The translations under genes and the position numbers were made by a program. A stretch of DNA of 64,000 bases from Lautropia sp. SCN 69-89. Its GTDB lineage: Bacteria > Pseudomonadota > Gammaproteobacteria > Burkholderiales > Burkholderiaceae_E. The number at the start of each line of letters is the position of its first letter. The stretch's first letter is position 1. Under the pieces are notes generated by a model. The model saw nothing but the letters and a program-made list of their open reading frames with translations. It ran no database searches and was not told where the DNA came from. The stretch lies in contig MEED01000018.1 in assembly GCA_001724855.1 (NCBI GenBank), positions 27,703 to 91,702 of the forward strand, written 5' to 3'. Below, in pieces: positions 40,851-59,592 of this stretch.

Positions 40851-41758
40851 ACGCGATCGAGCCGCCGGCCACGCGCCGCGAGGAAAAGCTCGCCTACGAG
40901 CGCAACAAGCTGCACAAGCGGCTGCTGCGCCAGACCGGACAGGCGATCGCCGACTTCGGGATGATCGAGGCCGGCGACCGGGTGATGGTCTGCCTGTCCG
41001 GCGGCAAGGACAGCTACGCGCTGCTCGACCTGCTGATCACGCTGCGCAACCGCGCCCCGGTCGCCTTCGACCTCGTTGCGGTCAACCTCGACCAGAAGCA
41101 GCCGGGGTTTCCGGCCCACGTGCTGCCGCGCTACCTCGAATCGCGCGGGGTGCCCTTCCACATCGAGAACCAGGACACCTATTCGATCGTCACCCGGGTG
41201 ATTCCGGAGGGGCGCACGATGTGCTCGCTGTGCTCGCGGCTGCGCCGCGGCATCCTGTATCGCGTGGCCGACGAGCTCGGCGCGACGAAGATCGCACTGG
41301 GCCACCATCGCGACGACATCCTCGAGACCTTCTTCCTGAACATGTTCTTCGGTGGCAAGCTCAAGGCGATGCCGCCCAAGCTCGTCTCCGACGACGGCCG
41401 GCACATCGTGATCAGGCCGCTCGCCTACGCGAGGGAGGAAGATCTCGCCGGGTTTGCGCAGTGGCGCGAGTTCCCGATCATCCCGTGCAACCTGTGCGGG
41501 TCGCAGGAAAACCTGAAGCGCCGCGAGATCAAGCAGCTGCTGCGCGACTGGGAACGGCGCTTTCCCGGGCGCGTCGAGAACGCGTTCGCGGCGCTCGGCC
41601 GCCTCACGCCTTCGCACCTGATGGACCGCGAGCGCTTCGACTTCGCGGGCCTGCGCGCCACCGGCGAACCGATGCCCGACGGCGACATCGCGTTCGACGC
41701 AGATCCGTCGCTCGATTCGCCGCCTGTGTTGCCGCCTGAGTCACCGCGTCAGTTGTAG
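40847..41758 (+). CDS. ttcA: tRNA 2-thiocytidine biosynthesis protein TtcA
   Basis: [25 protein letters not shown]; GTG start. Confidence 0.96.
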
Positions 41759-42753
41759 GCGCTGCGGCTCAGCGTTTCGGAGGGCAGTTCGCCGAACATC
41801 CGGCGGTAGTCGGAGGCGAAATGGCTCAGGTGCCAGAAGCCCCAGCGCGCGGCGATGTCCTGCACCGACCCGCATCGCTGGTCGGCCGCCTTCAGCGCGC
41901 GGCGCACGCCGTTCAGCCGCAGCGCCCTGAGATAGCTCACCGGGTTGACCCGCAGCACCTCGCGAAAGCTGTATTGCAGCGTGCGCCGGCTCACCCCGAG
42001 CTCGCGGCACAGGTCTTCGATCGTGAGCGGCTCCTCGACGTGCTCGCGCATGTAGTCCTGCGCGCGGCTGACGATCGCGTGGCCGCGCGTCGGCGCGTCG
42101 CAGCCGGGGCGCTGCTCGCCGCCGGGCTCCAGCACGTCGAGCACCGCGCCGAAGATCGCGTGGCCGAGCGCCTTCTGCATCGCCGGATGCTGCAGCTTCT
42201 CGGGGTTGTGCGAGATCGATTCCAGGGCCATCAGCAGCAGCTTGCGGAAGCGGTCGACGCGCGCGGGCGGCGGCGACGTGACGAACACGCCGCACAGCTC
42301 GCGCTCGATGTCGCGTTGCTCGACCTCCAGCGCGTAGCGGCTCAGCGCGTCGATCGGCATCGACACCGCCACCAGGTCGAGCCTGGGCGGCGAGCGCAGG
42401 TCGAGCTCCTGGCCGTCGCGCAGCACGATCACGGAGTCGCGACAGATCGGTCGGCCGCCGTGATAGCCCTCGACCTCGGTATCGACCGGCACGCCGAACA
42501 TGTACGCGCCCGCGCGCCCGCTGCCCGATTCGTGGATCACCTGGTTGGTGGTCTCGCGAAACAGCTGGATGTCGCGAAACAGCGCCTCGACGAGGCTGCC
42601 CTCGAACGGCCCCGGGGTGAGCTGCTCGTAGACCTGGTCCCAGGCGCTGAGCCGCGCCGCGTGCTCGTCGGCATCGCGCGAGAGCAGCCGGGCGAACGAA
42701 TACTGCTCGCCGCCTGCGCATCGGTTCGTCGCTTCCCGGTCGATTCCGATCAT
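41749..42753 (-). CDS. AraC-family regulator, EutR-like
   Basis: [27 protein letters not shown]-terminus; Ara[44 protein letters not shown]; divergent from mauB. Confidence 0.9.
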
Positions 42754-42884
42754 CGTCGGCCCCCAGCGTTCGTTGCGGTGTTCGCAGCGGCCCCGGGGCG
42801 CCTGCGGGCGCCTCCGGACAGACGATCGAGTTAACACCATCGACCCGCTCGTGGCAATGATCGGGTCGGGTTTTTCGGGTATCC

Positions 42885-42898
42885 GTTGCATATGCAAC
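42885..42898. promoter_or_regulatory. Perfect 14-bp palindrome GTTGCATATGCAAC in the divergent promoter region
   Basis: Seen directly; a second palindrome ATGCACC-N5-GGTGCAT lies at 42916-42934. Confidence 0.5.
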
Positions 42899-43031
42899 CA
42901 TCTTCAGGCAGCACAATGCACCAAGAAGGTGCATCTCCGGTTGCCGTTTTCGGCTAACGCGCCAGCGCCGTCCGAATCTAGAATCCTCCGGGCGTTTCGG
43001 CGAAGACCGGAACCCTCAGAGGAGACCGCAC

Positions 43032-44183
43032 GTGGTGAGTCGCAGCATCCCCCGGCAGCTGGCCGGTCTGGTCCTGGCCCTCGGCCTGGCCGCGGCCCAG
43101 GCGGAATCGTTGCCCGAGAAACAAACCGTCACGACCCCGTCGCCGGCCGGGCCGTACCGGGTCTACGTCTCCGATATCGCGATCAACCACATGGTCGACG
43201 GCCGGCTGCACGTGATCGACGTCGACACCGCGCGCTATGTCGGGGTCATTCCCAGCGCGTTCGCCGGCCAGTCGGTGCTGTCGCCCGACCGCAAGGAGAT
43301 CTACGTCTCCACCACCTACTATTCGCGGCTGTCGCGCGGCACCCGAACCGAGGTGATCGACATCTGGGACAGCGTCACGCTCGCGCACAAGGGCGAGATC
43401 GCGATTCCCGACCGGCGCGCCCAGGCGCTGAACTACAAGGGCCTGATCACCGTCTCGGCCGACGGGCGCTGGCTGTTCGTGCAGAACGCCACGCCGGCGA
43501 GCACGGTCAGCGTGATCGACCTGCGCCAGCGCAGGCTGGCGAGCGAAATCGCGACCTCGGGCTGCTGGCTCGCGCTGCCGGTGCAAAGCGCGCCGCAGCG
43601 TTTCGCCACGCTGTGCGGCGACGGAACGATCGAGACCGTCACCCTCGACGAGGCCGGCGCGCTGAAGGCCCGCACCCGCAGCGAGCCGTTCTTCGACGCC
43701 GACGTCGACCCGGTCTTCGTGCATTCCGAGACGATCGGCGACCGCTACTTCTTCGTGTCCTACCTCGGCCAGGTCCACGAGGTCGATCTTTCGCAGGACA
43801 AGCCGAAGGCCCTGGGGCGCTGGCCGCTGGTGCAGGGGGCCGACGCGAAGAAGGGCTGGCGGCCGGGCGGCTACCAGCTGTTCGCGGTCCACGCGGCCAG
43901 CGGGCGGCTGTACGTCGCAATGCACCCGAACGGCGCCGAGGGGTCGCACAAGAATCCCGCCGCGGAGATCTGGGCGTTCGACATCGCCACGCACAAGCGC
44001 ATCGGCCGCATGCCGGGCCACAACGCGATCGCACTGGCCGCAGTGCAGGGCACGGGACCGCGGCTGGTGGCCCTCGACGGCGCGACCATGGGGCTGGTGC
44101 TGATCGACGCGGGCGCCAAGCCGCGCGTGATCTCGCGGATGGATGCGATCGCCGATTCGGCCACCCAGCTGGAACTGCAATGA
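43032..44183 (+). CDS. mauB: TTQ amine dehydrogenase large (beta-propeller) subunit
   Basis: Signal peptide; STTYYSRLSRGTRTEVI, QNATPASTVSVID, CWLALP..FATLCGDG, WRPGGYQ, LYVAMH..HKNPA. Confidence 0.92.
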   Translation: MVSRSIPRQLAGLVLALGLAAAQAESLPEKQTVTTPSPAGPYRVYVSDIAINHMVDGRLHVIDVDTARYVGVIPSAFAGQSVLSPDRKEIYVSTTYYSRLSRGTRTEVIDIWDSVTLAHKGEIAIPDRRAQALNYKGLITVSADGRWLFVQNATPASTVSVIDLRQRRLASEIATSGCWLALPVQSAPQRFATLCGDGTIETVTLDEAGALKARTRSEPFFDADVDPVFVHSETIGDRYFFVSYLGQVHEVDLSQDKPKALGRWPLVQGADAKKGWRPGGYQLFAVHAASGRLYVAMHPNGAEGSHKNPAAEIWAFDIATHKRIGRMPGHNAIALAAVQGTGPRLVALDGATMGLVLIDAGAKPRVISRMDAIADSATQLELQ

Positions 44184-44734
44184 TGCCGGCCTTCGCAGCC
44201 GACCCGGTCCTCGGGCACGCGGCGGCGGCGGCGCTGGCGATCGTGCTGCTCGCCGGCGCCTGGCACAAGCTCGCCGACCTCGACGCCTTCACGCTCGCCG
44301 TCGAGCGCTACCGGCTGCTCGGCCCGGCCGGCGCTCGGGTTACCGCGCTGCTGCTGCCGCCCGTCGAAGCGCTGGCCGGACTTGCGCTGCTGCATCCGGC
44401 CTCGCGCGCCGCCGGGGCGGGGTTGGCCGCCGCGATCCTGCTGCTGGTCACCGGGGCGGTCGCCATCAACCTGCTGCGCGGCCGGCGCGACATCGACTGC
44501 GGATGCGGCGCACCGGGCTCGGGGCGGCGCCTGTCCTGGATCCTGGTGGCGCGCAACGCCGCGCTGGTCGCGCTGTGCGCGCTCGCCGCCGCCCCGGAGT
44601 CGCCGCGCGAGCTGGTCTGGCTCGACGGCTTCACCACCGCGTTCGCCGCGCTCGCGCTGTGGGCCGTCTACGGCGCGGTCAACGAGCTGTTCTCCGACAC
44701 GCAACGCTTCTCCGCCTCACGGACCGAACCATGA
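44183..44734 (+). CDS. mauE: Methylamine utilisation membrane protein MauE
   Basis: AGWHKL, INLLRGRRDIDCGCG, LVARN. Confidence 0.92.
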   Translation: MPAFAADPVLGHAAAAALAIVLLAGAWHKLADLDAFTLAVERYRLLGPAGARVTALLLPPVEALAGLALLHPASRAAGAGLAAAILLLVTGAVAINLLRGRRDIDCGCGAPGSGRRLSWILVARNAALVALCALAAAPESPRELVWLDGFTTAFAALALWAVYGAVNELFSDTQRFSASRTEP

Positions 44735-45330
44735 CCGAAGCTCTCGTCGTCTCGAACATCGTCCTGTGGGTCGCCGTGCTCGCGCTGCTCGGCACCGTCT
44801 TCGCGCTGGCGCGCCAGATCGGCGTGCTCTACGAGCGCATCGCCCCGATGGGCGCGCTGATGCTCGACAGCGGGCCGAAAGTCGGCGAATCCGCCCCGGC
44901 GTTCGACCTGGTCACGCTCGACGGCCGGCCCTTCGCCACCGGCGGCGCGCGCACGAAGAGCCTGCTGCTGTTCTTCCTCTCGCCGACCTGCCCGGTGTGC
45001 AAGAAGCTGCTGCCGATCCTGAAGCGGGTCGCCGTCGACGAGGGGCAGTGGCTCGAGATCGCGTTCGCGAGCGACGGCGACGTCGACGAACACGCGGCGT
45101 TCCGCACCCGCGCCGGCCTGCAGGCGTATCCGTACCTGCTGTCGACCGACCTCGGCATGGCCTACCGGATCGGCAAGCTGCCCTACGCAGTGCTGGTCGA
45201 CGAAGCCGGAAAGGTGAAGGCCAAGGGCCTCGTCAACTCGCGTGAACAGATCGAGAGCCTGTTCACCGCCCGCGACCTCGGCGTCGCGTCGGTGCAGGAA
45301 TTCGTCGCAATGGAGGCCCGCAGAGCATGA
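44731..45330 (+). CDS. mauD: Thioredoxin-like maturation protein MauD
   Basis: ARQIGVLYERIAPMGAL, SPTCPVCK, KGLVNSREQIESL. Confidence 0.95.
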   Translation: MTEALVVSNIVLWVAVLALLGTVFALARQIGVLYERIAPMGALMLDSGPKVGESAPAFDLVTLDGRPFATGGARTKSLLLFFLSPTCPVCKKLLPILKRVAVDEGQWLEIAFASDGDVDEHAAFRTRAGLQAYPYLLSTDLGMAYRIGKLPYAVLVDEAGKVKAKGLVNSREQIESLFTARDLGVASVQEFVAMEARRA

Positions 45331-45854
45331 AATGGCTTGACGACGCATTCGAGCGCTCGACGCGCGCGGCCGCGCAGCGCATCTCGCGACGCAGCGCACT
45401 GGCACGCGCCGGCCGCTTCCTGATGGGCGCGGCGATCGCGCTGCCGGTGCTGCCCTTCGACCGCACTTCGCACGCCGCGAGCGCCCACGGCGGCGGCAAG
45501 TCGAAGGCGCCCGACGACCAGCAGTGCGACTACTGGCGCTACTGCGCGGTCGACGGCTTCCTCTGCTCGTGCTGCGGCGGGACGGTGAACAGCTGTCCGC
45601 CCGGCACCGAGCCGTCGAAGGTGTCCTGGATCGGCACCTGCCGCAACCCGGCAGACGGCAAGGACTACCTGATCAGCTACTACGACTGCTGCGGCAAGGC
45701 CGCGTGCGGGCGCTGCCTGTGCAACACCAACCTCGGCGAGCGGCCCGCCTACCGGATCACGCTGCACAACGACATCAACTGGTGCATGGGAAGCACCAGC
45801 ACGATGTTCCATTGCACGGCCTCTCTGGTGGTCGGCATCGCTGACAAGAAGTGA
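45327..45854 (+). CDS. mauA: TTQ amine dehydrogenase small subunit (aromatic amine dehydrogenase-like)
   Basis: Tat signal SRRSAL; Cys-rich core; both TTQ tryptophans (VSWIGTC, NDINWCM) and catalytic Asp (YDCCG). Confidence 0.96.
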   Translation: MKWLDDAFERSTRAAAQRISRRSALARAGRFLMGAAIALPVLPFDRTSHAASAHGGGKSKAPDDQQCDYWRYCAVDGFLCSCCGGTVNSCPPGTEPSKVSWIGTCRNPADGKDYLISYYDCCGKAACGRCLCNTNLGERPAYRITLHNDINWCMGSTSTMFHCTASLVVGIADKK

Positions 45855-45870
45855 CACGACAGGAGACGAC

Positions 45871-47235
45871 ATGAAGGGGTGGAAGAAACTCTCGGCAGCC
45901 GTCGCGCTCGCCGTTGCCTGGGGTTCGGCGAGTGGCGCAGCGAGCGAACAGGAAGCCGCGCGGCTGGGCAAGGACCTCACTCCGGTCGGCGCCGAGAAGG
46001 CCGGCAACAAGGAGGGCACGATCCCGGCCTGGACCGGCGGCATCACGAAGGCGCCGGCGGGCTGGAAGCCGAGCGACCCGCGCGTCGACCCGTACAAGGA
46101 CGACAAGGTCCTGTTCTCGATCGACGCGTCGAACGTCGACAAGTACAAGGACAAGCTCTCCGAGGGCCAGCAGACGCTGATCCGCACCCTCAAGGGCTAC
46201 CGGATGGACGTCTACCCGACGCGCCGTTCGTGCGGGTACTCCGACGAGATCTACCAGCGCACCGCGCAGAACGCCCGCGTGGCCCGCCTGGCCGAGGGCG
46301 GCTGGCAGCTCGAGAACGCGGTCGGCCGCGGCGTCCTGTTCCCGGTCCCGAAGAACGGCGCCGAGGCGGTCTGGAACCACAAGCTGCGCTTCCAGGGCGC
46401 GGGGCGCGTCGAGCACTACTCGACGCTGTTCTCGGCGAAGAGCGGCGACTTCTCGCAGCTGGCGCAGAACCAGTGGGTCGTCTACCCGATCCACGACCCG
46501 GCGATGAAGAGCTTCGAGGACCTGAAGAAATCCGAGGCGAAGATCCTGAACGAGGTGGTCTCCCCGGCCGCCCGCGCCGGCGAGATGATCCTGGTGCACT
46601 GGTTCATGGACCGCGGCTCCGACGCCTGGCTCTACTTCCCCGGCCAGCGCCGCGTGCGCCGCGCGCCCTCGTTCGCGTACGACAACCCGGTGCCCGGCTA
46701 CGAGAACCTCGAGACGGTCGACCAGTACCCGATGTATGCCGGCGCGATGGACCGCTACGACTGGAAGCTGGTCGGCAAGAAGGAGATGTACATCCCGTAC
46801 AACAACTGGAAGCTGATCGACAAGAGCCGCAAGTTCAAGGACATCTACCTGCCCGACTACGTCAACCGCGACCTGATGCGCTACGAGTTGCACCGCGTCT
46901 GGGTCGTCGAGGCGACGCTCAAGGAAGGCATGCGTCACATCTTCCCGCGCCGCGTGATGTACATCGACGAGGACAGCTGGACGCTGATCCTTACCGACCT
47001 GTACGACGCGCAGGGAAAGATCTGGCGCGTCCAGGAAGCGAGCCTGTGGGTGGCACCCGAGATCCCGGCCTGCGTGAGCCAGGAGTTCGTCGGCTACGAC
47101 CTCAACGTCGGCCGCTACATCGCCGAGACGGCGACCCAGGAGCACCCGCCCACCGACTGGCTCGCGGGCCGCGAAGGGCGCATCAACCCGAACATGTTCA
47201 GCCCCGACGAGCTGCGTCGCCGCGGCGAGCGCTGA
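45871..47235 (+). CDS. DUF1329-family periplasmic/lipoprotein-sorting-like protein
   Basis: LTPVGAEKAGNKEGTIPAW, AWLYFPGQRRVRRAP, RYELHRVWVVEATLK. Confidence 0.92.
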   Translation: MKGWKKLSAAVALAVAWGSASGAASEQEAARLGKDLTPVGAEKAGNKEGTIPAWTGGITKAPAGWKPSDPRVDPYKDDKVLFSIDASNVDKYKDKLSEGQQTLIRTLKGYRMDVYPTRRSCGYSDEIYQRTAQNARVARLAEGGWQLENAVGRGVLFPVPKNGAEAVWNHKLRFQGAGRVEHYSTLFSAKSGDFSQLAQNQWVVYPIHDPAMKSFEDLKKSEAKILNEVVSPAARAGEMILVHWFMDRGSDAWLYFPGQRRVRRAPSFAYDNPVPGYENLETVDQYPMYAGAMDRYDWKLVGKKEMYIPYNNWKLIDKSRKFKDIYLPDYVNRDLMRYELHRVWVVEATLKEGMRHIFPRRVMYIDEDSWTLILTDLYDAQGKIWRVQEASLWVAPEIPACVSQEFVGYDLNVGRYIAETATQEHPPTDWLAGREGRINPNMFSPDELRRRGER

Positions 47236-47314
47236 GCGCCGCCGCCGACGTCCGATCTGCACCACGCCGGGCCGAGGGTCCGGCGCGACAACGACAACCA
47301 GGAGGAACGGGTCC

Positions 47315-49147
47315 ATGACCAGCAGCATGAGCAGCACCGGGGTGGCGCGGGCGGTTGCCGGCGCGCTCGCCCTTCTCGCGGCGGGCGCGATCGCCCCGCC
47401 CGCGCACGCGTTCAAGTTCGGCAACGACAACGTCACGGGCAGCTTCGACTCGACCGTCTCGTTCGGGTTCATCAAGCGCCTGGAAAGCCCCAGCCGCAGG
47501 ATCATCGGCAACGACAACGGCGGCAACGTGCCGACCACCAGCGAGCTGGAGTCGCGCGTGAACGCCTTCTACGGCGGCGGCGCGATCGCGAACCCCGACT
47601 TCAACTACCTGCAGTCCGACGACGGCAACCTCAACTACAAGAAGGGCGACATCGTTTCGGCGGCGCTCAAGGGCACGCACGAGCTGGTCCTGCACGGACC
47701 GCGCGGCTTGAGCGGCATGCTGCGCGCGACCTGGTTCAAGGACTGGAAGGTCGACGACACCGACCGCACGCCGCTCGATCCCGCGTCGCACGCGGTGGCG
47801 GTCGACAAGTGGACCTGGCTCGATGCGTGGGTCGCGAAGGAATTCGAAATCGCCGGTCGCCCGGCCAAGATCAAGTTCGGCAACCAGGTGATCAGCTGGG
47901 GCGAGGACATCTTCATCTACGGCGGCGTCAACGTCACCAACGCGATCAACCTGCAGAACTTCCACGTGCCCGGCACGCAGCTGAAGGAGATCTTCAAGCC
48001 GGCGCCGATGGTCTCGCTGAACGCCAACATCGCCGAGGGACTGAGCGTCGAGGGCTACTACCAGTTCCGCTGGAACGCGTTCACCTTCGACCCGGTCGGC
48101 ACCTTCTTCTCGGTGACCGACGTGATCGGCAAGGGCGGGCGCAACGCGTTCATGAACTCCACGCTGCTCGGCTTGCCGCCCGGGACCGTCGGCGACATCG
48201 GCACGATCAACCCGACGACGGGGCAGCGTTTCACGCTCGCGGAGCTGGCAGCGGGCACCGCGACGGTGCCGGTGGCCGGCGTCGAACTGCCGACGCTCGT
48301 GAATCCGCTGGCCACCCGCGAGCCGAAGGACTCGGGCCAGTTCGGCCTCGCGACGCGCTGGCTGCCCGAGGGCTCCGAAACCGAGTTCGGCGCGTACTGG
48401 ATCCGCTACCACGACAAGCTGCCCTTCGTCGGGTTCAACTTCGACCCGGCGCGCCACACGACCAACGTCGCCGGCCTGGCCTACTACGTCGACTACGGCG
48501 AGAGCCGCAACGTCTTCGGCGTGTCCGCGAACACGCGCGTCGGCACCTGGGCGGTCGGCGCCGAGCTGTCGTACCGGCCGAAGGACAGCGTCGGCGTCGA
48601 CACGACGGTGCCGGCGGGCGGAAAGTATTCGGTGTTCGACTACGTGGGCAAGACCACGCGAGGCTTCGTCGAGGAGCGCAAGTGGCAGGCCCACCTCACC
48701 GGCTTCAAGCTGATGGCGCCCGCCGACCTGGGCGGCCTGATCGGCAATCTCGGCGCCGAGGAAGGCTACTTCCTCGGCGAGGTGGCCGTCGCGCACTACC
48801 CCGGGCTCGATCGCTCGGGCCGCATCCCGTACCTGCTCACCGACTACTCGCTGCCCGACCGCACCTCGGCCGGGCTGGTGTTCTCCACCGGGCTCACCTA
48901 CGCGAACGTCGGCGACAGCGGCTGGAACATGATGCCGCAGCTCGACATGTCCTGGGACTTCCATGGCACCTCGCCGAACGCGGTGCCCTTCGTCGAAGGC
49001 CGCAAGGCGATGACGCTGTCGCTGAACTTCAACCGCTCCGACAAGTGGAAGGCCGGCATCGGCTATACCCGCTTCTGGGGCGGCGGCGGCAACAACCTGA
49101 TGAGGGACCGCGACTTCCTGTCGGTGATCACCTCGGTGTCGTTCTGA
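47315..49147 (+). CDS. DUF1302-family outer-membrane protein
   Basis: DDGNLNYKKGD, GNQVISWGE, GAELSYRP, terminal DRDFLSVITSVSF. Confidence 0.92.
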   Translation: MTSSMSSTGVARAVAGALALLAAGAIAPPAHAFKFGNDNVTGSFDSTVSFGFIKRLESPSRRIIGNDNGGNVPTTSELESRVNAFYGGGAIANPDFNYLQSDDGNLNYKKGDIVSAALKGTHELVLHGPRGLSGMLRATWFKDWKVDDTDRTPLDPASHAVAVDKWTWLDAWVAKEFEIAGRPAKIKFGNQVISWGEDIFIYGGVNVTNAINLQNFHVPGTQLKEIFKPAPMVSLNANIAEGLSVEGYYQFRWNAFTFDPVGTFFSVTDVIGKGGRNAFMNSTLLGLPPGTVGDIGTINPTTGQRFTLAELAAGTATVPVAGVELPTLVNPLATREPKDSGQFGLATRWLPEGSETEFGAYWIRYHDKLPFVGFNFDPARHTTNVAGLAYYVDYGESRNVFGVSANTRVGTWAVGAELSYRPKDSVGVDTTVPAGGKYSVFDYVGKTTRGFVEERKWQAHLTGFKLMAPADLGGLIGNLGAEEGYFLGEVAVAHYPGLDRSGRIPYLLTDYSLPDRTSAGLVFSTGLTYANVGDSGWNMMPQLDMSWDFHGTSPNAVPFVEGRKAMTLSLNFNRSDKWKAGIGYTRFWGGGGNNLMRDRDFLSVITSVSF

Positions 49148-52032: not shown

Positions 52033-53057
52033 GCGGGCGGGCACGCACGAAGCGGCGCACGGTCGCGATCGTTGCCGCCTGTGTCCTGGCCGCGTCGCTC
52101 GGAGTGTCGGGCACGGGCGCCGGCGCGGCGGACAAGCCGCCGTCCGACGTGCCCACCGGCGCAGGGGTCGCCCCGAAGACCGACGGCGCGGCCGGCGTGC
52201 ACGCGCAGAAGGTCGCACACCCCGAACGGGCGCCGCTGATGGCGGCCACGCGCGCCGGATCGCGCATCGTCGCGGTCGGCGACTTCGGCACCGTCCTGCT
52301 GTCCGACGACCAGGGCGCGAGCTGGCGGCAGGCAGCCGACGTGCCGACGCGCGTCACGCTGACCGCAGTGCAGTTCCTCGACGCGAAGCAGGGATGGGCG
52401 GTCGGGCACGGCGGGCTGGTGCTCGCCAGTGCCGACGGCGGCGAGCACTGGCGCGTCGCGCACCGCGCCGGCACCGAGTTCTCGTTCTTCTCGGTGCACT
52501 TCTCCGACGCCGAACACGGGCTGGTGGTCGGCGCATTCGGCGCCGCGATCGCCACGGAAGACGGCGGCAAGACCTGGGACGAAATCACCGTCGGGCAAGG
52601 CGAGTTCTCCGATCGCCACCTGTACCAGATCTTCCCCGGCCCCGACGGCACGACCTGGATCGCCGCCGAGAGCGGCGTGGTCTACCGCTCGACCGACGCA
52701 CGCGTGTTCGCTCCGGTCTCGCTGCCCTATCGCGGCTCGATCTGGGGCGGCATGACGCTGCCCGGCGGCGCGATCCTGGTCTGGGGCATGGGCGGGCACG
52801 TGCTGCGCAGCACCGACTCGGGCGCGTCGTGGCGCGAGATCCCCAGCGGCACCGAGAACCCGTTGACCGCCGGGCTGCTGCTGGGCAAGCGGATCGTGCT
52901 CGCCGGACTCGGCGGCGCGGTGCTCACCAGCGACGACCTCGGCGCGAGCTTCCGCGCCGAGATCCGTCCCGACCGCCTGTCCTACACCGCGGCGGTCGAG
53001 TCCGCCGGGGCGCCGCTGCTGACCAGCCTGTCGGGCGTAGCCGCGCCGCGCAAATGA
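52029..53057 (+). CDS. YCF48-related BNR/beta-propeller protein
   Basis: Repeated SDDQGASW / TEDGGKTW / STDSGASW Asp-box motifs; signal peptide. Confidence 0.9.
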   Translation: MSGRARTKRRTVAIVAACVLAASLGVSGTGAGAADKPPSDVPTGAGVAPKTDGAAGVHAQKVAHPERAPLMAATRAGSRIVAVGDFGTVLLSDDQGASWRQAADVPTRVTLTAVQFLDAKQGWAVGHGGLVLASADGGEHWRVAHRAGTEFSFFSVHFSDAEHGLVVGAFGAAIATEDGGKTWDEITVGQGEFSDRHLYQIFPGPDGTTWIAAESGVVYRSTDARVFAPVSLPYRGSIWGGMTLPGGAILVWGMGGHVLRSTDSGASWREIPSGTENPLTAGLLLGKRIVLAGLGGAVLTSDDLGASFRAEIRPDRLSYTAAVESAGAPLLTSLSGVAAPRK

Positions 53058-53104
53058 GCACAGGGTCGCCGCGCCGCGGCGACCGACAACCAGCGAGGAG
53101 AACG

Positions 53105-54598
53105 ATGAACCAGTCCGTCCAGAGCCAGCAACCCGAACTCTCGGCCATCCGGCAGAAGATGTTCATCGACGGAAGGTTCGTCGATGCGCGCTCCGGCAAG
53201 ACGCTGCCGGTGTTCAACCCGGCCACCGGCGCCGAGATCGCCCGGGTGCCCGACGCCCAGGCCGAAGACGTCGACGCGGCGGTGCGCTCGGCGCGCGCCA
53301 CTTTCGAGTCGGCGGCCTGGCAGGGCATGCTGCCCGCCGAGCGCGAGCGGCTGCTGCTGAAGCTGGCCGACCTGATCGAGCAGCACGGCGAGGAGCTCGC
53401 GCGGCTCGAGACGCTGAACAACGGCAAGCTGCTGATGTTCTCGCGGATGCTCGAGGTGGGCGCCAACGCGCAGTGGACGCGCTACATGGCCGGCTGGGCC
53501 ACGAAGATCGAAGGCTCGACGCTGGACGTGTCGATTCCGTTTCCGCCCGGCGTGCGCTACACCGCGATGACCCGTCGCGAGCCGGTCGGCGTCGTCGGCG
53601 CGATCGTGCCGTGGAACTTCCCGCTGCTGATGGCGATGTGGAAGATCGCGCCGGCGCTGGCCTGCGGCTGCACCGTGGTGCTCAAGCCGGCCGAGGAAAC
53701 GCCGCTCACCGCGCTGCGGCTGGCCGAGCTGGTGATGGAGGCGGGTTTCCCGGCGGGCGCGGTCAACGTGGTCACCGGCTACGGCGAAAGCGCGGGCGCG
53801 GCGCTGGTGCGTCATCCGGGCGTCAACAAGATCGCCTTCACCGGCTCGACCGAGGTCGGCAAGATCATCGGCCGCAGCTGCATGGACGACATGAAGCGCG
53901 TGTCGCTCGAGCTGGGCGGCAAGAGCCCGGTGATCGTGCTCGACGACTGCGATCCCGCGGTCGCGGTCGCGGGCGCGGCCGGCGCGATCTTCTTCAACCA
54001 CGGCCAGGTCTGCACGGCCGGCTCCCGGCTGTTCGTGCACAAGAGCCGCTACGACCAGGTGCTCGCCGGGCTCGCGTCCGCGGCCGAGTCGACGAAGCTC
54101 GGCGACGGTTTCGACGAGTCCGCGCAGATGGGCCCGATGGTGTCGGCCACGCATCGCGACCGCGTGGTGCGCTACATCGAGTCGGGCAAGTCCGAAGGAG
54201 CCGAGCTGCTCGCCGGCGGCCAGGCGCAGCCCGGATCGGGCTACTTCGTACGGCCCACCGTGTTCTCGAACACCACGGGCAAGGACCTCACGATCTCGCG
54301 CGAGGAGATCTTCGGGCCGGTGGTCGTCGCGTCGCCGTTCGACGATCTCGACGACGTGGCACGCAAGGCGAACGACTCGCGCTACGGGCTGGGGGCGAGC
54401 ATCTGGACCAACAACCTGACGCAGGCCTACCGGCTGATCCCCAAGGTGCAGGCCGGCACCGTCTGGCTGAACTGCCACAACATGGTCGATCCGAACCTGC
54501 CGTTCGGCGGCTACAAGGACTCCGGCGTCGGGCGCGAGCACGGCCGGGCGATGATCGACGTCTACACGGAGACGAAGTCGGTGTGCGTAGCCTACTGA
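53105..54598 (+). CDS. Aldehyde dehydrogenase, phenylacetaldehyde dehydrogenase-like
   Basis: PWNFPL, FTGSTEVG, LELGGKSP, NHGQVCTAG, EEIFGPV. Confidence 0.93.
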   Translation: MNQSVQSQQPELSAIRQKMFIDGRFVDARSGKTLPVFNPATGAEIARVPDAQAEDVDAAVRSARATFESAAWQGMLPAERERLLLKLADLIEQHGEELARLETLNNGKLLMFSRMLEVGANAQWTRYMAGWATKIEGSTLDVSIPFPPGVRYTAMTRREPVGVVGAIVPWNFPLLMAMWKIAPALACGCTVVLKPAEETPLTALRLAELVMEAGFPAGAVNVVTGYGESAGAALVRHPGVNKIAFTGSTEVGKIIGRSCMDDMKRVSLELGGKSPVIVLDDCDPAVAVAGAAGAIFFNHGQVCTAGSRLFVHKSRYDQVLAGLASAAESTKLGDGFDESAQMGPMVSATHRDRVVRYIESGKSEGAELLAGGQAQPGSGYFVRPTVFSNTTGKDLTISREEIFGPVVVASPFDDLDDVARKANDSRYGLGASIWTNNLTQAYRLIPKVQAGTVWLNCHNMVDPNLPFGGYKDSGVGREHGRAMIDVYTETKSVCVAY

Positions 54599-54966
54599 GT
54601 CCGGGCAGGCTGGCGGCCGGGTTGCTCGCGGTCGGGCTGCTCTGCGGCGGCCCGGCGGCGGCCGCGCAGCCCGCAGCCGCGTCGGCGCCGCAGAACGCGG
54701 CGACGCTGTACGCGCTGAACTGCATGGGCTGCCATCCGCCCCCGCGCACGCCCGGCGCGGACCGCGGGCCGTTGCGCGGCGAGTTCTACCTGAACGCGCG
54801 CGGCCGCAACTTCTACATCCGCGTGCCGCAGGACGGCAAGCGCGTGCTCGGCCCCGACGAGGAAGCGCGGCTGCTCGACGAGATCATGACCTGGAAGCGC
54901 AGTTGCGCGGCGATCCTGCAGGACGCGCCCCAGGTGCACTACAGCGGCGAGCGCTTCGTCAAATGA
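54583..54966 (+). CDS. Small monoheme cytochrome c
   Basis: Signal peptide then YALNCMGCH; GRNFYIRVP; GTG start inside the ALDH 3' end is inferred. Confidence 0.8.
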   Translation: MRSLLSPGRLAAGLLAVGLLCGGPAAAAQPAAASAPQNAATLYALNCMGCHPPPRTPGADRGPLRGEFYLNARGRNFYIRVPQDGKRVLGPDEEARLLDEIMTWKRSCAAILQDAPQVHYSGERFVK

Positions 54967-56057
54967 ACGTGCGCTCGCTGCCTCGGGTCGTCGCCGCAAT
55001 GCTCGCCGCCGTGCTGCTCGCCGCGGCACCCGCGCGCGCGGCCGATACGGTTTCGCGGCCGCCGTCGCCGGCGGCCAGCGCGGCACTTCTCGAACTCGGC
55101 CGGCACCTGTTCTTCGAGTCGCGCCTGTCCGGCGACGGCAGCCGCAGCTGCGCGAGCTGCCACGCGCCGGCGCGCGGCTTCTCGGAGGGCGTGGCGCTGT
55201 CGCGCGGCTACAACCACAGCGGGCACTTCCGCAATGCGCCCGGCCTGCTCGGCCTGCGGCTCAAGGAGCGACTCGCCTGGGACGGGCGCTACCGCATCGA
55301 CGAGCTGCCGAAGCTGGTCGAGGAGATGCTGACCTCGCCGATCACGATGAACGGCAACCCGGGGATCATCGCCGAGCGGGTGCGCCAGGTGCCGCAGCTG
55401 CTGCAGTTGTGGCAGCGGGCCTTCGGCGAGCGCACGCCGCCCTCGTTCGACGGCGTGGCCCGTGCGATCGCCGCCTGGTCGGCCGCGCACGACGGCGGCG
55501 ACACCGCGGTCGACGCCGCGCTGCGCGGCGACGCGTCGGCGCTGTCGCCGCGGGCCGCCGAGGGGATGCGGCTGTTCACCGGCAAGGCGGGCTGCTCGGG
55601 CTGCCATTCCGGTCCGGCGTTCTCCGACGGCCTGGCGCACCGGCTCGGCGTCCCTGAATCGCCGCAGATCCTGCGCGATCCGGAGCGCACGGTCGCGCTG
55701 CTGGCCCATCACGCGAGTCATGGCTCGGCCGACCCGATGAGCGAGCGCAGCGACACCGGCGTGCACGCGTTGACCCGCAGGGCTTCGGACCGGGGACGCT
55801 TCTTCACGCCGGGCCTGCGCGGCGTGGCGCAGACCGCCCCGTACATGCACAACGGTACCCTCCCCGATCTCGCGGCGGTCGTCGCGTTCTACGACCGCGG
55901 CGGCGGCCGCGGCTCCGAGACGAAGCCGCTCGGCCTGTCCGCGAGCGAACGCGAAGCGCTGGTGGCGTTCCTCGAGGCGCTCACGCCGCGCACCGCGCTC
56001 GCCGTGGCGCCGCCGCCCGCCTTCGACTACGCCACGCAGGCGGGAGCCGGGCGATGA
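54963..56057 (+). CDS. Di-heme cytochrome c peroxidase/MauG-family protein, copy 1
   Basis: CASCH and CSGCH, RNAP, WDGR, TAPYMHNG..VAFY. Confidence 0.9.
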   Translation: MNVRSLPRVVAAMLAAVLLAAAPARAADTVSRPPSPAASAALLELGRHLFFESRLSGDGSRSCASCHAPARGFSEGVALSRGYNHSGHFRNAPGLLGLRLKERLAWDGRYRIDELPKLVEEMLTSPITMNGNPGIIAERVRQVPQLLQLWQRAFGERTPPSFDGVARAIAAWSAAHDGGDTAVDAALRGDASALSPRAAEGMRLFTGKAGCSGCHSGPAFSDGLAHRLGVPESPQILRDPERTVALLAHHASHGSADPMSERSDTGVHALTRRASDRGRFFTPGLRGVAQTAPYMHNGTLPDLAAVVAFYDRGGGRGSETKPLGLSASEREALVAFLEALTPRTALAVAPPPAFDYATQAGAGR

Positions 56058-57250
56058 AGATCCGGGTCGTCACGGGCGTGCTGCTCGCGCTCGCTGCGAG
56101 CGCTGCGGTCGCCGTGGCCGCGCTGTCGGCCGCGCGCGCACCGGCGCCCGCCTCGGCCGACTCGGTGCCCGCGCTGGCGCTGCTGCCGCCGGTGCCGGTG
56201 CCGGCCGACAACCCGATGAGCGCGGCCAAGGTCGAGCTCGGGCGGCTGCTGTTCTTCGATGCGCGCCTGTCGGGCGACACCTCGACCTCGTGCGCGACGT
56301 GCCACGTCGCGCAGATGGGCTGGACTCACGGCGATGCGCTCGCGCCCGGCTATCCGGGCCACCGTCTGTGGCGCAACAACCCCACGGTGCTCAACGCCGC
56401 GCATTTCCGCCGGCTGATGTGGGACGGCAGCCTCGACCGGCTCGAGGTGCAGGCGCGCTCGGCCATGCAGGCGCCGGTCGAGGGCAACGGCAACGCCGCC
56501 ATCGTCGAGATGCGGCTGCGGCTGGTGCCCGAATACGTCGACCGCTTCCGCGAGGCGTTCGGCGCCGAGTGGCCCAGGCTCGACGATGCGTGGCGGGCGA
56601 TCGCAGCCTTCGAGCGCACCGTCGTCTCCGATCCGCGCAAGGTGCCGTTCGACCGCTTCCTGGCTGGCGACGCGAAGGCGCTGACCGCCGCGGCGCAGCG
56701 CGGCTACGCGCTGTTCACCGGCAAGGCGGGCTGCATCGCCTGCCACCATGGCCCGCTGGCGAGCGACGAGAGCTATCACGCGCTCGGCGTCCCGCGCCAG
56801 TCGCTGTACGACTCCAGCGCGCTGGTGCAGGTCGCGGTGCGCTGGCAGAACGCCCAGCGCGATGCGCCGCGCGCGCTGTACCGCGGCGCCGAGGAAGACC
56901 TCGGCCGCTACTACCGCACCCGCGATCCAGCCGACATCGGCAAGTTCCGCACGCCGTCGCTGCGCGAGCTGCGCTACACCGCGCCCTACATGCACAACGG
57001 CGTGTTCGGCACGCTGCAGGAAGTGGTCGACTTCTTCGACCGCGGTGGCGGCGACGCGCCCAACAAGTCGCCGCTGCTGCGCCCGCTCGGGCTCACCAGC
57101 GACGAGAAGCGCGACCTGGTCGCGTTCCTCGAATCGATGAGCATGGACGAGCCGCTGATCGTCGCCGCGCCCGAGCTGCCGCCGATGCAGCCGCTCGTCG
57201 AGGAAACGGCGGGCAGCTGCAGCGCGAACGATGGAGGAGGGGCGGGATGA
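56054..57250 (+). CDS. Di-heme cytochrome c peroxidase/MauG-family protein, copy 2
   Basis: PADNP..KVELGRLLFFDARLS, CATCH and CIACH, WDG..EVQA..PVE, TAPYMHNG..VDFF. Confidence 0.92.
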   Translation: MKIRVVTGVLLALAASAAVAVAALSAARAPAPASADSVPALALLPPVPVPADNPMSAAKVELGRLLFFDARLSGDTSTSCATCHVAQMGWTHGDALAPGYPGHRLWRNNPTVLNAAHFRRLMWDGSLDRLEVQARSAMQAPVEGNGNAAIVEMRLRLVPEYVDRFREAFGAEWPRLDDAWRAIAAFERTVVSDPRKVPFDRFLAGDAKALTAAAQRGYALFTGKAGCIACHHGPLASDESYHALGVPRQSLYDSSALVQVAVRWQNAQRDAPRALYRGAEEDLGRYYRTRDPADIGKFRTPSLRELRYTAPYMHNGVFGTLQEVVDFFDRGGGDAPNKSPLLRPLGLTSDEKRDLVAFLESMSMDEPLIVAAPELPPMQPLVEETAGSCSANDGGGAG

Positions 57251-59592
57251 CGAACGCCGGCAGGCTCTGGAACCGCTTCGTGATGAACCCCCGGGGCTGG
57301 TGGCTGCCGCTGCTCGCGGTGCTCGCGATCGGCGTGGGCAGCATGCTGTACATGGGCACGCGCACCTACCTCGATGCGCCACCGGTGCCCGACTTCGTCG
57401 ACGAGCGCGGCGTCGCGGTGGTACCGGCCGCAGCAATCACGCGCGGGCAGGCGGTGTTCCTGAAGTACGGGCTGATGAACTACGGCAGCATGTTCGGCGA
57501 CGGCGCCGGACGCGGCCCCGACTTCACCGCCGACGCGCTGCACCAGATGGCGCGCGCGATGCGCGACCATCATGCGTCCGCCGACGGCGTCGACGTCGAT
57601 TCCGCGCTCGCCGCCGCGCAGCGCGAGATCAAGCGCAATCGCCACGATGCGCTCACCGACACGGTCACCGTCGGCGCGGCGCAGGCCTATGCCGCGCGCG
57701 AGATCGAGCGTCGCGTGGCCGCGATGTTCCGCGGCGAGGGCAGCGAAGCCTTCCACCCTGCCGGCTTCATCGCCGACGAAGCCGAACTGCGCGACCTCGC
57801 GGCCTTCTTCTTCTGGGGAGCGTGGGTCTGCGGCGTCGAGCGGCCCGGCAAGGCCTACAGCTACACGCACAACTGGCCGTACGACGAGCTGGCCGGCAAC
57901 CGGCCGAGCGCGCAGGTCATGCTGTGGAGCGTGATCGCGGTGCTCGCGCTGGTGGCCGCGCTCGGCGCGGTGCTGTTCCTGTACGGCCGCTACGCGTCGA
58001 TCGCCGGATGGCGTCCCGCGCAGCGCGGCGACGCGTTCCCGCAGGCGGGAGCGATGGCCAGCGCCGCGGCGGTCGATGCGCTGCGCCCCGGCGCGCTGCA
58101 GCGCGCGACCTACAAGTTCTTCGCTGCCGCCGCGGTGCTGTTCGTGCTGCAGGTCGCCGCCGGCATCCTGACGGTGCACGACTTCCTCGGCATCACCCGG
58201 GTGTTCGGCGTCGATCTCGCGCAGGCGCTGCCGATCCCGGTGGTCCGCGGCTGGCACCTGCAGCTCGCGCTGCTGTGGATCACCGCCTGCTGGGTCGGCG
58301 CGTCGATCTTCGTCGTGTCGACGGCGGCGCCTCGGGCACCGGCCGGACAACTGAGGCTGGTCCAGCGGCTGTTCGGCCTGTTCGTCTTCACCGCGGTCGG
58401 CGGGCTGGCCGGTGTCGCGCTCGGGCCGCACGGGCTGCTCGGCGACTGGTGGCACCTGCTCGGCAGCCAGGGTTGGGAGTTCGTCGAACAGGGCAGGCTC
58501 TGGCAGGCGCTGCTGTTCGCGGTGTTCGCGCTGTGGTGCCTGGTGCTCGCACGTGCGGTGCGGCCGATCTGGCATTCGGGCGATGCGTGGATGCTGCCGA
58601 AGTGGCTGCTCTACTGCGTCGCCTGCGTGCTGGTGCTGTTCGTCTCCGGGTTCGTCGCAACCCCGCAGACCAACTTCGTGGTCGCCGATTTCTGGCGCTG
58701 GGCGGTGATCCACATGTGGGTCGAGGCGTTCTTCGAAGTCTTCACCACCGCGGTGCTCGCGTACTTCATGGTGCTGATGGGACTGGTGAGCCACCCCGCG
58801 GCCTCGCGCATCGTCTATCTCGCAGCCCTGCTGTTCCTCGGTTCGGGCCTGCTCGGCATCTCGCACAACTTCTACTGGAACGCCAAGCCGGTCGAGACGC
58901 TGGCGATCGGCAGCGTGTTTTCGACGCTGCAGGTCGTGCCGCTGATCCTGCTCACGCTCGAAGCCTGGCAATTCCGCAACGCGCCGCAGCGCGCGAACGC
59001 CGCTGGCGGCTTCGGCCAGTCGGAGGCGTTCCTGTTCCTGCTCGGCGTGAATGTCTGGAACTTCCTGGGCGCCGGCATGTTCGGCTTCATGATCAACCTG
59101 CCGATCGTCAACTACTACGAGCACGGGACCTACCTGACGGTGAACCACGGCCACGCCGCGCTGATGGGCGTCTACGGCAACCTCGCGATCGCGACGATCG
59201 TCTTCTGCGCGCGCTGCCTCATCGAGCCCGCCCGCTGGAACGCCGCGCTGCTGCGCCGCGTGTTCTGGTCGCTCAACGTCGGCCTGCTGCTGATGATCGT
59301 CGCCGACCTGTTTCCGGTGGGCATCGCGCAACTGCTCGACGTGCTCGAAAACGGCTTCTGGCACGCACGCTCGCAGGCGTTCATCGGCAGCGACCTGTTC
59401 CAGGCGCTCACCTGGGCCCGCATCGTCGGCGGTGCGCTGTTCGTGCTCGGCGGCGTGCTGCCGCTGGCCTGGTTCGTCGTGACTCGTGCGGCCGCACTGA
59501 AGGCGCCGCGTCCCGAGCCAGCCGAGGACGCGGCGACCCGCACTGCGCCGGGCGCGGACGCGCTGCCGTTGGCCGAGGGCCCGCGCGCCTGA
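57247..59592 (+). CDS. qNOR-related heme-copper-oxidase superfamily protein with Nod-type (putative NO dismutase) active-site substitutions
   Basis: qNOR architecture (GPDFTAD, WHLQL, HMWVEAFFE, TVNHGH); SHNFYW instead of HH, TLQVVP instead of E, YTHNWP, RIVGG instead of R..GD. Confidence 0.85.
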   Translation: MTNAGRLWNRFVMNPRGWWLPLLAVLAIGVGSMLYMGTRTYLDAPPVPDFVDERGVAVVPAAAITRGQAVFLKYGLMNYGSMFGDGAGRGPDFTADALHQMARAMRDHHASADGVDVDSALAAAQREIKRNRHDALTDTVTVGAAQAYAAREIERRVAAMFRGEGSEAFHPAGFIADEAELRDLAAFFFWGAWVCGVERPGKAYSYTHNWPYDELAGNRPSAQVMLWSVIAVLALVAALGAVLFLYGRYASIAGWRPAQRGDAFPQAGAMASAAAVDALRPGALQRATYKFFAAAAVLFVLQVAAGILTVHDFLGITRVFGVDLAQALPIPVVRGWHLQLALLWITACWVGASIFVVSTAAPRAPAGQLRLVQRLFGLFVFTAVGGLAGVALGPHGLLGDWWHLLGSQGWEFVEQGRLWQALLFAVFALWCLVLARAVRPIWHSGDAWMLPKWLLYCVACVLVLFVSGFVATPQTNFVVADFWRWAVIHMWVEAFFEVFTTAVLAYFMVLMGLVSHPAASRIVYLAALLFLGSGLLGISHNFYWNAKPVETLAIGSVFSTLQVVPLILLTLEAWQFRNAPQRANAAGGFGQSEAFLFLLGVNVWNFLGAGMFGFMINLPIVNYYEHGTYLTVNHGHAALMGVYGNLAIATIVFCARCLIEPARWNAALLRRVFWSLNVGLLLMIVADLFPVGIAQLLDVLENGFWHARSQAFIGSDLFQALTWARIVGGALFVLGGVLPLAWFVVTRAAALKAPRPEPAEDAATRTAPGADALPLAEGPRA

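Follow-up and report, generated by a model that had tools for sequence, protein, structure and literature searches.

The 64,000-nucleotide (nt) stretch of DNA analysed here (positions 27,703 to 91,702 of the forward strand of contig MEED01000018.1 of Lautropia sp. SCN 69-89), hereafter the window, has a G+C content of about 70% and carries a real 14-gene operon for periplasmic aromatic-amine oxidation in a denitrifying Burkholderiales bacterium. The operon opens with the genes of a dehydrogenase that depends on tryptophan tryptophylquinone (TTQ), continues through an envelope module and an aldehyde dehydrogenase (ALDH), and closes with a 3' module of four genes for a small cytochrome c, two di-haem enzymes of the cytochrome c peroxidase (CCP) kind, CCP1 and CCP2, and a putative nitric oxide (NO) dismutase (Nod). 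All 14 genes are co-directional on the + strand over positions 43032-59592, with one divergent AraC-family gene beside them. An initial annotation of the window had described 14 co-oriented genes over this span with eight overlaps, a largest gap of 79 nt and a EutR-like divergent regulator, and its coordinates and families are confirmed here. Its gene labels stand as to family and order, but its 'mau' genes are of the aromatic amine dehydrogenase (AADH) type and its 'CCPs' are a pair of the kind called IdrP in iodate reductase (Idr) islands, from the MauG/BthA-like branch. The features, with families assigned by Pfam and NCBIfam profiles, are as follows.

41749-42897, - strand: divergent AraC-family regulator, EutR-like (PF12833, 1.6e-23; NF007522 EutR, 200 bits, below the cut-off of 319)
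42898-43031, no strand: regulator-mauB intergenic region, predicted to be regulatory (palindromes TGCATATGCA and TGCACC-N5-GGTGCA; sigma-70 consensus absent in a scan)
43032-44183, + strand: TTQ aromatic amine dehydrogenase large (alpha) subunit, aauB/mauB (PF06433, 9e-43)
44180-44734, + strand: MauE-like membrane protein (PF07291, 1.2e-24)
44731-45330, + strand: MauD thiol-disulfide oxidoreductase (TIGR02661, 195.7 bits, above the cut-off of 188.6)
45327-45854, + strand: TTQ small (beta) subunit with twin-arginine leader (PF02975, 2.4e-53)
45871-47235, + strand: DUF1329 (LolA-like) envelope protein (PF07044, 1.4e-136)
47315-49147, + strand: DUF1302 outer-membrane protein (PF06980, 2.4e-138)
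49167-51527, + strand: RND/HAE3-MMPL-type transporter (PF03176; TIGR00921 HAE3, 2.4e-43)
51550-52032, + strand: TerB-domain protein (PF05099, 1.6e-26), in the same slot in relatives
52029-53057, + strand: YCF48/BNR beta-propeller protein (PF14870, 4.7e-17)
53105-54598, + strand: cytoplasmic NAD-dependent phenylacetaldehyde dehydrogenase, StyD-type (NF045735, 901 bits, above the cut-off of 850; PF00171, 2e-178)
54583-54966, + strand: small exported mono-haem cytochrome c (one CxxCH, CMGCH, at residue 44 of a 124-residue reading; GTG start inferred)
54963-56057, + strand: di-haem enzyme CCP1, IdrP2 position type (PF03150, 6.9e-32; two CxxCH)
56054-57250, + strand: di-haem enzyme CCP2, IdrP1 position type (PF03150, 1.2e-42; TIGR03791, 223 bits, below the cut-off of 444)
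57247-59592, + strand: protein of the quinol-dependent NO reductase (qNOR) family with the putative Nod signature, 781 residues (PF22085, NorB cytochrome-c-like domain; PF00115, COX1 core)

The genes are tightly packed. Overlaps of 4 nt join mauB/mauE, mauE/mauD, mauD/mauA, TerB/YCF48, cytochrome c/CCP1, CCP1/CCP2 and CCP2/nod, and the overlap of the ALDH and cytochrome c genes, 16 nt given the GTG start at 54583, brings the total to eight. The remaining junctions are gaps of 16, 79, 19, 22 and 47 nt, that of 79 nt being the largest; the 47-nt gap between YCF48 and ALDH presupposes the ALDH start at 53105, which best fits the StyD model, and the ATG at 53054 would turn it into an overlap. A consensus scan found no sigma-70-like sites inside the operon, and the four terminator-like hairpins seen all lie within coding sequence, against 7.3 expected by chance from shuffled sequence. 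No detectable signal splits the last genes off from the rest of the operon, and nothing above chance answers to the internal promoter or terminator for which the initial annotation had left room. At the 5' end, a GGAG lies 8 nt before the GTG start of mauB, and the palindromes TGCATATGCA and TGCACC-N5-GGTGCA (within 42840-43031) are candidate binding sites for the AraC-type regulator, the actual start of which may be an internal ATG near 42753. Orthologues of this regulator precede mauB in genomes G021 (66% identity) and G179 (60%) and lie beside the stand-alone nod of G002 (61%).

The alpha subunit matches the AADH alpha subunit (PDB 2H3X) with E=4e-89 as against 1e-36 for the heavy chain of methylamine dehydrogenase (MADH), and the beta subunit matches that of the Alcaligenes faecalis AADH (PDB 2AGL_D) with E=4.6e-56 as against about 1e-36 for MADH. 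Both TTQ tryptophans, Trp101 (45627-45629) and Trp152 (45780-45782), are kept in the beta-subunit alignment. With both subunits nearer AADH than MADH, both TTQ residues in place and mauE and mauD alongside, the dehydrogenase is, as judged from these alignments, of the aromatic-amine type (EC 1.4.9.2) and not of the methylamine type. The combination of an AADH-type dehydrogenase with a StyD-type ALDH points to phenylethylamine-type substrates rather than methylamine. The aromatic-amine catabolic unit proposed in the initial annotation is thus upheld as a single and conserved one, given the AADH and StyD identities and a gene order that is kept in the genus. The aau cluster of A. faecalis reportedly consists, in work of Chistoserdov from 2001, of aauBEDA with a gene for a small mono-haem cytochrome c. 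The operon resembles it in the B-E-D-A order, in the small cytochrome c gene and in the absence of a canonical mauG, and differs in its additional envelope module, TerB gene, phenylacetaldehyde dehydrogenase, two di-haem enzymes and Nod. The physiological electron acceptor of AADH in A. faecalis is azurin.

Four families, DUF1302, DUF1329, BNR and RND, are encoded side by side in the operon, YCF48 being the fourth member, and together they correspond to a described co-fitness module (bioRxiv 10.1101/072470). The module is known from aromatic catabolic clusters (Thauera pipAB, Delftia phnK), and PP_0765/0766 of Pseudomonas putida provide a further comparison (10.1101/2020.07.04.188060). Unlike in the co-fitness module as described, the set here stands within a TTQ amine dehydrogenase operon and includes an additional TerB gene. 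Such embedding recurs in four of the 20 other AADH-type clusters sampled in the order.

The small cytochrome c has no family match in Pfam or NCBIfam, and is kept (44-73% identity) 5' of CCP1 in Nod-linked loci and in two loci of the Idr type discussed below. CCP1 and CCP2 both have the inter-haem Trp and the Ca-site motifs and align best with the Tyr-His branch of di-haem enzymes (BthA, MauG), and the closest full-length solved relative of CCP2 is BthA (PDB 6E1C, 2.3e-45). In CCP1, Tyr310 (55890-55892) aligns with the axial Tyr294 of MauG, a position held by His in many orthologues, and Lys117 and Thr128 stand in place of the distal Gln and Glu. CCP2 keeps these as Gln133 and Glu143, and has Phe328 (57035-57037) at the Tyr294 position, as does every Nod-linked CCP2 orthologue. 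In one MAG (metagenome-assembled genome; L014, G010:C1:1689891-1691088) a frameshift in the region of the first haem motif, probably an assembly error, splits the CCP2 orthologue. The Trp before the second CxxCH, equivalent to Trp199 of MauG, is absent from both proteins, on TIGR03791 they reach 160 and 223 bits where 444 is the cut-off, and the equivalog cut-off of MbnH is likewise far from reached. Compared with MauG of Paracoccus denitrificans, BthA and MbnH (PMC6405878), the pair shares the CCP_MauG fold, two CxxCH motifs, the inter-haem Trp, the Ca-site motifs and, in CCP1, the Tyr, and differs in lacking Trp199, in the missing distal Gln/Glu of CCP1, in the Phe of CCP2 and in scoring below both the MauG and the MbnH cut-offs. 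We therefore rejected CCP1 and CCP2 as MauG: from their residues and profile scores, the twin peroxidases are not MauG orthologues and belong as an IdrP-type pair to the MauG/BthA-like (Tyr-His) branch. The initial annotation had treated them as MauG-type, which does not hold for proteins that depart in this way from the definition of MauG and are orthologues of a pair of the iodate-reductase type.

The published hallmark of iodate reductase islands is two CCP genes followed by those of the B and A subunits (idrP2-idrP1-idrB-idrA), and these peroxidases are absent from arsenite oxidase loci (PMC8692401, PMC10989891). In the published models IdrAB draws its electrons from cytochrome c, and the electrons with which IdrP1/P2 reduce H2O2, or a different oxidant by-product, come from cytochrome c too (PMC8692401). 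For comparison, Idr-type clusters were chosen by this published synteny criterion; the named IdrP1/P2 and IdrA proteins (Pseudomonas sp. SCT, Denitromonas sp. IR-12) stand outside the set. A sister operon found elsewhere in the order, in a different family (G179; L209/L229, G179:C34:167500-199999), agrees with that of the window throughout the stretch from AraC to CCP2, sharing AraC, mauBEDA, the envelope module, TerB, YCF48, ALDH, cytochrome c, CCP1 (54% identity) and CCP2 (64%, with Phe). After CCP2 it has no nod; an AioB-like Rieske gene (93.2 bits, cut-off 95.65) and an AioA-like molybdoenzyme gene (358.4 bits, cut-off 359.05) follow instead. Its layout corresponds to the P,P,B,A order of iodate reductase islands joined to an AADH operon. 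Four further Idr-type clusters were found in three other genomes, one with YCF48 and a small cytochrome upstream, and the one plain AioBA locus found has no peroxidases. CCP1 falls in one clade with the first CCPs of Idr-type clusters (Shimodaira-Hasegawa-like approximate likelihood ratio test, SH-aLRT, 98) and CCP2 in one clade with the second CCPs (SH-aLRT 95), four or five clusters being represented in each, with identities to the Idr-type pairs of 42-54% for CCP1 and 53-65% for CCP2. These sister clades indicate that the duplication is older than the split between the Nod-linked and the Idr-type pairs. In the same tree, the MauG-like gene that precedes nod in Hyphomicrobium-like metagenome-assembled genomes (MAGs) is a lineage apart from CCP1 and CCP2.

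In the genome of the window no AioA- or AioB-like gene was found anywhere, and nod occupies their slot. Like the Idr islands of Pseudomonas sp. SCT and of Denitromonas sp. IR-12, the operon has two adjacent genes for Sec-exported di-haem proteins directly 5' of the terminal enzyme. It differs from them in that the terminal enzyme is a membrane-bound haem/non-haem-iron protein of the NO reductase family, not a soluble molybdenum enzyme, and in the Phe of CCP2 in place of the axial Tyr, the small cytochrome c gene before the pair and the fusion to an amine dehydrogenase operon. By this analogy, the 3' module is best described as a putative nitric-oxide counterpart of the iodate reductase island, with the same peroxidase pair and another terminal enzyme.

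The initial annotation's reading of the last gene as Nod-like is borne out, for both published signatures are present. According to Ettwig et al. 2012 (PMC3413370), replacement of the FeB-ligating His560 by Asn and of the catalytic glutamate by Gln defines putative NO dismutases; from their citations, we take the glutamate meant to be Glu581. In an alignment to the Geobacillus stearothermophilus qNOR structure (PDB 3AYF, the numbering of which is used here), His560 corresponds to Asn541 (58867-58869) and Glu581 to Gln562 (58930-58932). The quinol-binding residues named in the same study are His328, Glu332, Phe336 and Asp746 (PMC3413370); of these His328 is retained, and the others are replaced (Glu332 by Gly315, Phe336 by Val and Asp746 by Gly729). 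Every haem ligand is intact, including the equivalents of His355, His651 and His653, and His508, Glu512, Glu516 and His559 are also unchanged. The protein has no CxxCH and shows the qNOR architecture, with an N-terminal helix, a haem-less cytochrome-c-like domain and a 12-helix core of the haem-copper oxidase (HCO) type in which the histidines of haem b and b3 persist. Both substitutions occur in all of the 120 closest homologues, and the degraded quinol-site pattern is likewise found throughout. A tree that covers sequences of Bacteroidota, Planctomycetota and Scalindua, with those of NC10 and HdN1 outside its sample, sets the Nod family apart, with a support of 100, from canonical qNORs, those of the same genus among them. 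The protein is similar to Nod of 'Ca. Methylomirabilis oxyfera' (DAMO_2434/2437) and of HdN1 in the qNOR fold, the haem-less domain, the His560Asn and Glu581Gln substitutions and the loss of Glu332 and Asp746; it differs in keeping His328 and in its context of an amine dehydrogenase and peroxidases rather than particulate methane or alkane monooxygenases. Residues specific to the CCP-linked Nod clade were considered as a docking surface and set aside, the 15 positions, six of them in the periplasmic domain, being too few for interpretation.

The residue pattern allows another reading, in which the Nod-like protein would be a true NO reductase where periplasmic donors have taken over from quinol; electrons would pass from AADH to cytochrome c, perhaps via the di-haem proteins, then to haem b and the active site to give nitrous oxide (N2O), with no O2 formed. 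The degraded quinol site together with retained haem b and haem ligands agrees with this, and so does the sister operon, where the same slot holds IdrBA-like genes whose characterised counterparts are described as a cytochrome-c-fed terminal reductase, which makes donation from cytochrome c the simplest common denominator. Control of the operon by an amine-type AraC regulator rather than an NO sensor also speaks for it, and Nod-expressing foraminifera appear as N2O producers in the passage of bioRxiv 10.1101/2023.11.21.568154 that cites them. On the other side, the FeB histidine and the catalytic glutamate are replaced in every member, which compromises NO reduction according to Ettwig et al. 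(PMC3413370); most members of the family have no adjacent gene for a periplasmic donor; the haem-less cytochrome-c-like domain would, from the qNOR structure, cover the side on which a donor should dock; and the genome already holds a cNorB-like gene. Moreover, we know of no ordinary cytochrome c-dependent NO reductase or qNOR locus that needs peroxidases. On balance we consider an NO reductase of this kind improbable.

The initial annotation had left recurrence in other genomes as a test of the arrangement, and the combination is indeed found in the genus and the 3' module beyond it. The 14-gene layout is present in about 21 species of the genus; 22 of its 36 species genomes carry a Nod-type gene of at least 73% identity, and 22 an orthologous light chain. 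Where mauA and nod lie on one contig (13 genus genomes), 10-14.5 kb separate them and they share a strand, and the order from mauE to nod is identical in the closed chromosome of a complete 4.0-Mb genome, most of the other genomes being MAGs. Among 400 genomes sampled evenly across the order, none has a Nod-type gene and 33 have a mauA-like gene. The spacing in 13 genomes, set against the absence of Nod from the order sample, puts the arrangement far beyond chance.

A survey of public genomes and metagenome contigs covered the 80 closest nod loci. In 27 of the 29 non-redundant loci with at least 69% identity and upstream DNA present, the start of nod abuts or is overlapped by the end of a CCP_MauG-family gene, and the CCP-linked Nods form one clade (SH-aLRT 99). 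The 3' module (cytochrome c, CCP1, CCP2, nod) also occurs in Rhodocyclaceae, Sulfuritalea and Polaromonas. The mauBEDA genes of Sulfuritalea diverge from ALDH-cytochrome c-CCP1-CCP2-nod, which shows that the gene association outlives rearrangement. In another locus (L028) cytochrome c-CCP1-CCP2-nod is present and the other cluster genes are absent upstream, and the last four genes are thus a separable module. About 60 more distant members of the Nod family (Bacteroidota, Planctomycetota, Obscuribacterales, Pseudomonadales) stand alone. Since most Nod genes do so, the peroxidases would not be obligate Nod subunits but users or handlers of the Nod product.

Based on the analogy with Idr and because most Nods work without such partners, the reading that we favour, tentatively and short of calling it probable, is that Nod makes an oxygen-level oxidant from NO and that the peroxidases reduce this oxidant with AADH electrons delivered via the cytochrome. 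An arylethylamine (phenylethylamine, tyramine or tryptamine) would be oxidised to the aldehyde in the periplasm by the TTQ-dependent AADH, formed with MauE and MauD, while the DUF1329/DUF1302/RND/YCF48 envelope module might traffic hydrophobic substrate or product, and the StyD-type dehydrogenase would make phenylacetate in the cytoplasm. The genome holds nirS and a nosZ-like gene, which indicates that NO is made; NirS would supply it during nitrate or nitrite respiration, and Nod would convert it to an oxygen-level oxidant, be it O2 or a species at the level of peroxide. This oxidant would then be reduced by the two Tyr/His-type di-haem enzymes with electrons that AADH has passed to the small cytochrome c. 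NO would in this way serve indirectly as the operon's own anaerobic electron sink, reactive by-products would be cleared, and TTQ formation might be fed by the same oxidant. Every catalytic step of Nod and the peroxidases in this scheme, and the electron path, is one that we infer. A more specific version, in which the Nod clade and the IdrP-type peroxidases constitute an 'oxygenic' electron sink, O2 or peroxide produced from NO at the periplasmic face reoxidising the AADH-reduced cytochrome c and possibly building TTQ, appears to us rather doubtful. An electron drain via NO would fit the new evidence at least as well as O2 for cofactor maturation, the two roles offered in the initial annotation, and sequence alone cannot decide between them.

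Several points weigh against this favoured reading. To our knowledge, O2 is no substrate of classical bacterial peroxidases and is used only by MauG-type enzymes, in the diferrous state. The Phe of CCP2, in place of the Tyr ligand that is essential in MauG and BthA, and the missing distal acid-base residues of CCP1 make the chemistry of the pair hard to assign. The product of the Nod-like gene could be N2O. The Idr analogy is built on synteny and on orthology to clusters that are themselves defined by synteny, and the A and B subunits of the sister operon, which score just below the arsenite oxidase cut-offs, could be an arsenite oxidase. In two genomes of the comparison (G002 and G028) the peroxidase pair, with a Tyr-type CCP2, lies in a paralogous AADH cluster that neither nod nor idrBA adjoins. 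Finally, as of February 2024 biochemical characterisation of any Nod was lacking (bioRxiv 10.1101/2023.11.21.568154), and we found no later report of one in the literature.

The pairing of the peroxidases with AADH clusters bears on whether the oxidant instead serves TTQ maturation, the main proposal of the initial annotation, with Nod (or IdrBA in the sister operon) feeding CCP1 and CCP2, which would act together as MauG under denitrifying anoxia. AADH needs TTQ, the formation of which calls for a MauG-type di-haem enzyme that uses up O2 or H2O2, and a canonical MauG is neither in the cluster nor evident in the genome, which has one other family member, a lipoprotein described below. CCP1 and CCP2 are of the Tyr-His MauG/BthA-like branch and not Met-His peroxidases, and the presence of the Tyr without the distal Gln/Glu in CCP1, reversed in CCP2, invites a two-protein division of labour. 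The pair also stays with the paralogous AADH clusters of G002 and G028 in the absence of an adjoining nod, and another MauG-like gene is coupled to nod directly 5' of a true mauFBEDA cluster (L015). Set against this, most Idr-type clusters with the orthologous pair have no TTQ enzyme nearby: no mau genes of the operon were detected with two of them (L231, L232), a third (L233) shows only a weak mauD-like match of 34%, and published iodate reducers carry the pair as well. Conversely, of the 20 further AADH-type clusters taken from the order, 18 are without a nearby CCP, and mauA-like genes are found in the order sample where Nod is not (33 against 0 of 400). The pair fails the features that define MauG (Trp199, the TIGR03791 score, and the Tyr that is Phe in CCP2), and the Y294H substitution suffices to inactivate MauG. 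The unit of a MauG-like gene and nod on contig L100 has no mau genes within 10 kb, and the module of L028 stands free of the other cluster genes. We judge a maturation role for the pair unlikely, though a live alternative.

The peroxidases and Nod might otherwise have a protective function only, shielding the periplasmic amine system, with its haem and quinone cofactors, from NO, peroxide or peroxynitrite while the cell denitrifies, with no role in electron flow or cofactor formation. The model for Denitromonas does read IdrP1/P2 as pure detoxifiers, NirS makes NO in the same compartment, and Nod genes of Bacteroidota lie amid NO-stress genes (Rrf2, hemerythrin). However, translational coupling and a strict order that includes the cytochrome c gene over large evolutionary distances suggest a stoichiometric working unit, an amine-specific regulator would be unexpected for a general protective function, and most AADH clusters do without the module. 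Protection as the whole explanation seems very unlikely, more so than either of the two alternatives above.

The combination, of which the initial annotation knew no description, is not undescribed. That nod lies together with two cytochrome c peroxidase genes and mauABED in Burkholderiales has already been reported (mSystems 2026, PMC13386854), in one sentence on the two peroxidases and mauABED beside nod that offers no interpretation. The same study concludes that there is no clear oxygen-consuming system near nod, and mentions neither MauG nor TTQ nor iodate (PMC13386854). Beyond it, our literature searches on a tie between Nod and MauG or peroxidases gave no relevant result. The co-location is therefore already published and its interpretation is not; new as far as we found are the Idr-type identity of the pair, the exchange of Nod for IdrBA in one slot, the AADH/phenylacetaldehyde identity of the pathway and a testable mechanism. 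The 'methylamine utilisation cluster next to nod' (PMC13386854) is accordingly relabelled as an aromatic-amine/phenylacetaldehyde pathway with an Idr-type peroxidase pair.

Whether Nod produces O2 from NO, in the reaction 2 NO -> N2 + O2, is a question that has been open since 2010-2012, with no enzyme assayed as of 2024. Here, a Nod clade is tied by a conserved and translationally coupled order to enzymes that are known solely for dealing with oxygen-derived oxidants, so the operon provides a new genetic way to test the Nod product and makes the question one for the bench, with clear read-outs. It also hints at a way in which denitrifiers could carry out periplasmic chemistry that depends on an oxidant (TTQ enzymes, peroxidase-linked respiration) in the absence of external oxygen. 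If the 'oxygenic' sink is real, the interchange of Nod and an iodate-reductase-like enzyme in otherwise identical operons would for the first time indicate, by comparative genomics, that an oxygen-derived oxidant arises from Nod as it does from Idr, and cytochrome c oxidation, TTQ formation and anaerobic growth on phenylethylamine would serve as simple read-outs for Nod.

Other features of the genome and of related loci are recorded here. The Nod-like gene is not the sole NorB-family gene of the genome, for a second one lies on contig C67 (C67:1840-3711, L097); it is nearest cNorB (PDB 3O0R_B, E=3e-61), has no NCBIfam match, and no NorC-like CxxCH gene was seen upstream. A third MauG-family gene (C30:1458-2678) encodes a lipoprotein with the axial Tyr and the distal Gln/Glu and is followed by a gene for a porin-like protein of 457 residues; from these residues, the lipoprotein is a possible TTQ maturase. 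The aerobic phenylacetate pathway was considered as an O2 consumer and dropped, no PaaA or PaaC scoring above cut-off in the genome.

The loci of G002 show a further arrangement. Its nod (L016/L008, G002:C20) stands alone and divergent from an AraC gene with 61% identity to the operon regulator, within the range of orthologues, an arrangement suggestive of a loss of the 13 genes in between. The paralogous AADH cluster of the same genome, which holds the peroxidase pair, adjoins benzoyl-CoA-reductase-like and hemerythrin genes. The Tyr-type CCP2 of the Nod-less clusters in G002 and G028 had suggested that the Phe of CCP2 goes with Nod; as a strict rule this fails, G179 having Phe together with AioBA-like genes.

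In Hyphomicrobium-like MAGs (L015, 7607-12340; L100, 7709-12343; L116 and L117) a nod about 80% identical to that of the window is translationally coupled to the different MauG-like di-haem gene mentioned above. Before the latter stands a gene for a conserved Cys-rich protein of 330 residues, which lacks a signal peptide and matches neither Pfam nor NCBIfam families; its copies on two contigs are 78% identical. The trio of L015 lies directly 5' of mauF-mauBEDA, a true methylamine dehydrogenase cluster, whereas that of L100 is the one distant from any mau gene. The L015 protein shares the FYNKYTS motif with MauG, yet was rejected as a true MauG on account of its 102 bits on TIGR03791 and its separate lineage. 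In Asinibacterium sp. OR53, an isolate of the Bacteroidota (L004), a stand-alone Nod-family gene lies beside NirK-like, FGE-sulfatase (NirV-like), SCO1, Crp, hemerythrin and Rrf2 genes. These surroundings, of NO stress or denitrification, are consistent with NO as the substrate of the Nod family.

Downstream of the operon, from 59605-61020 (- strand) onward, a class-III aminotransferase gene, a HAD hydrolase gene and further genes converge on its end, a position that is kept in L001, L010 and L014. In G002 and G028 the aminotransferase gene is found instead 5' of the peroxidase pair, on the same strand.

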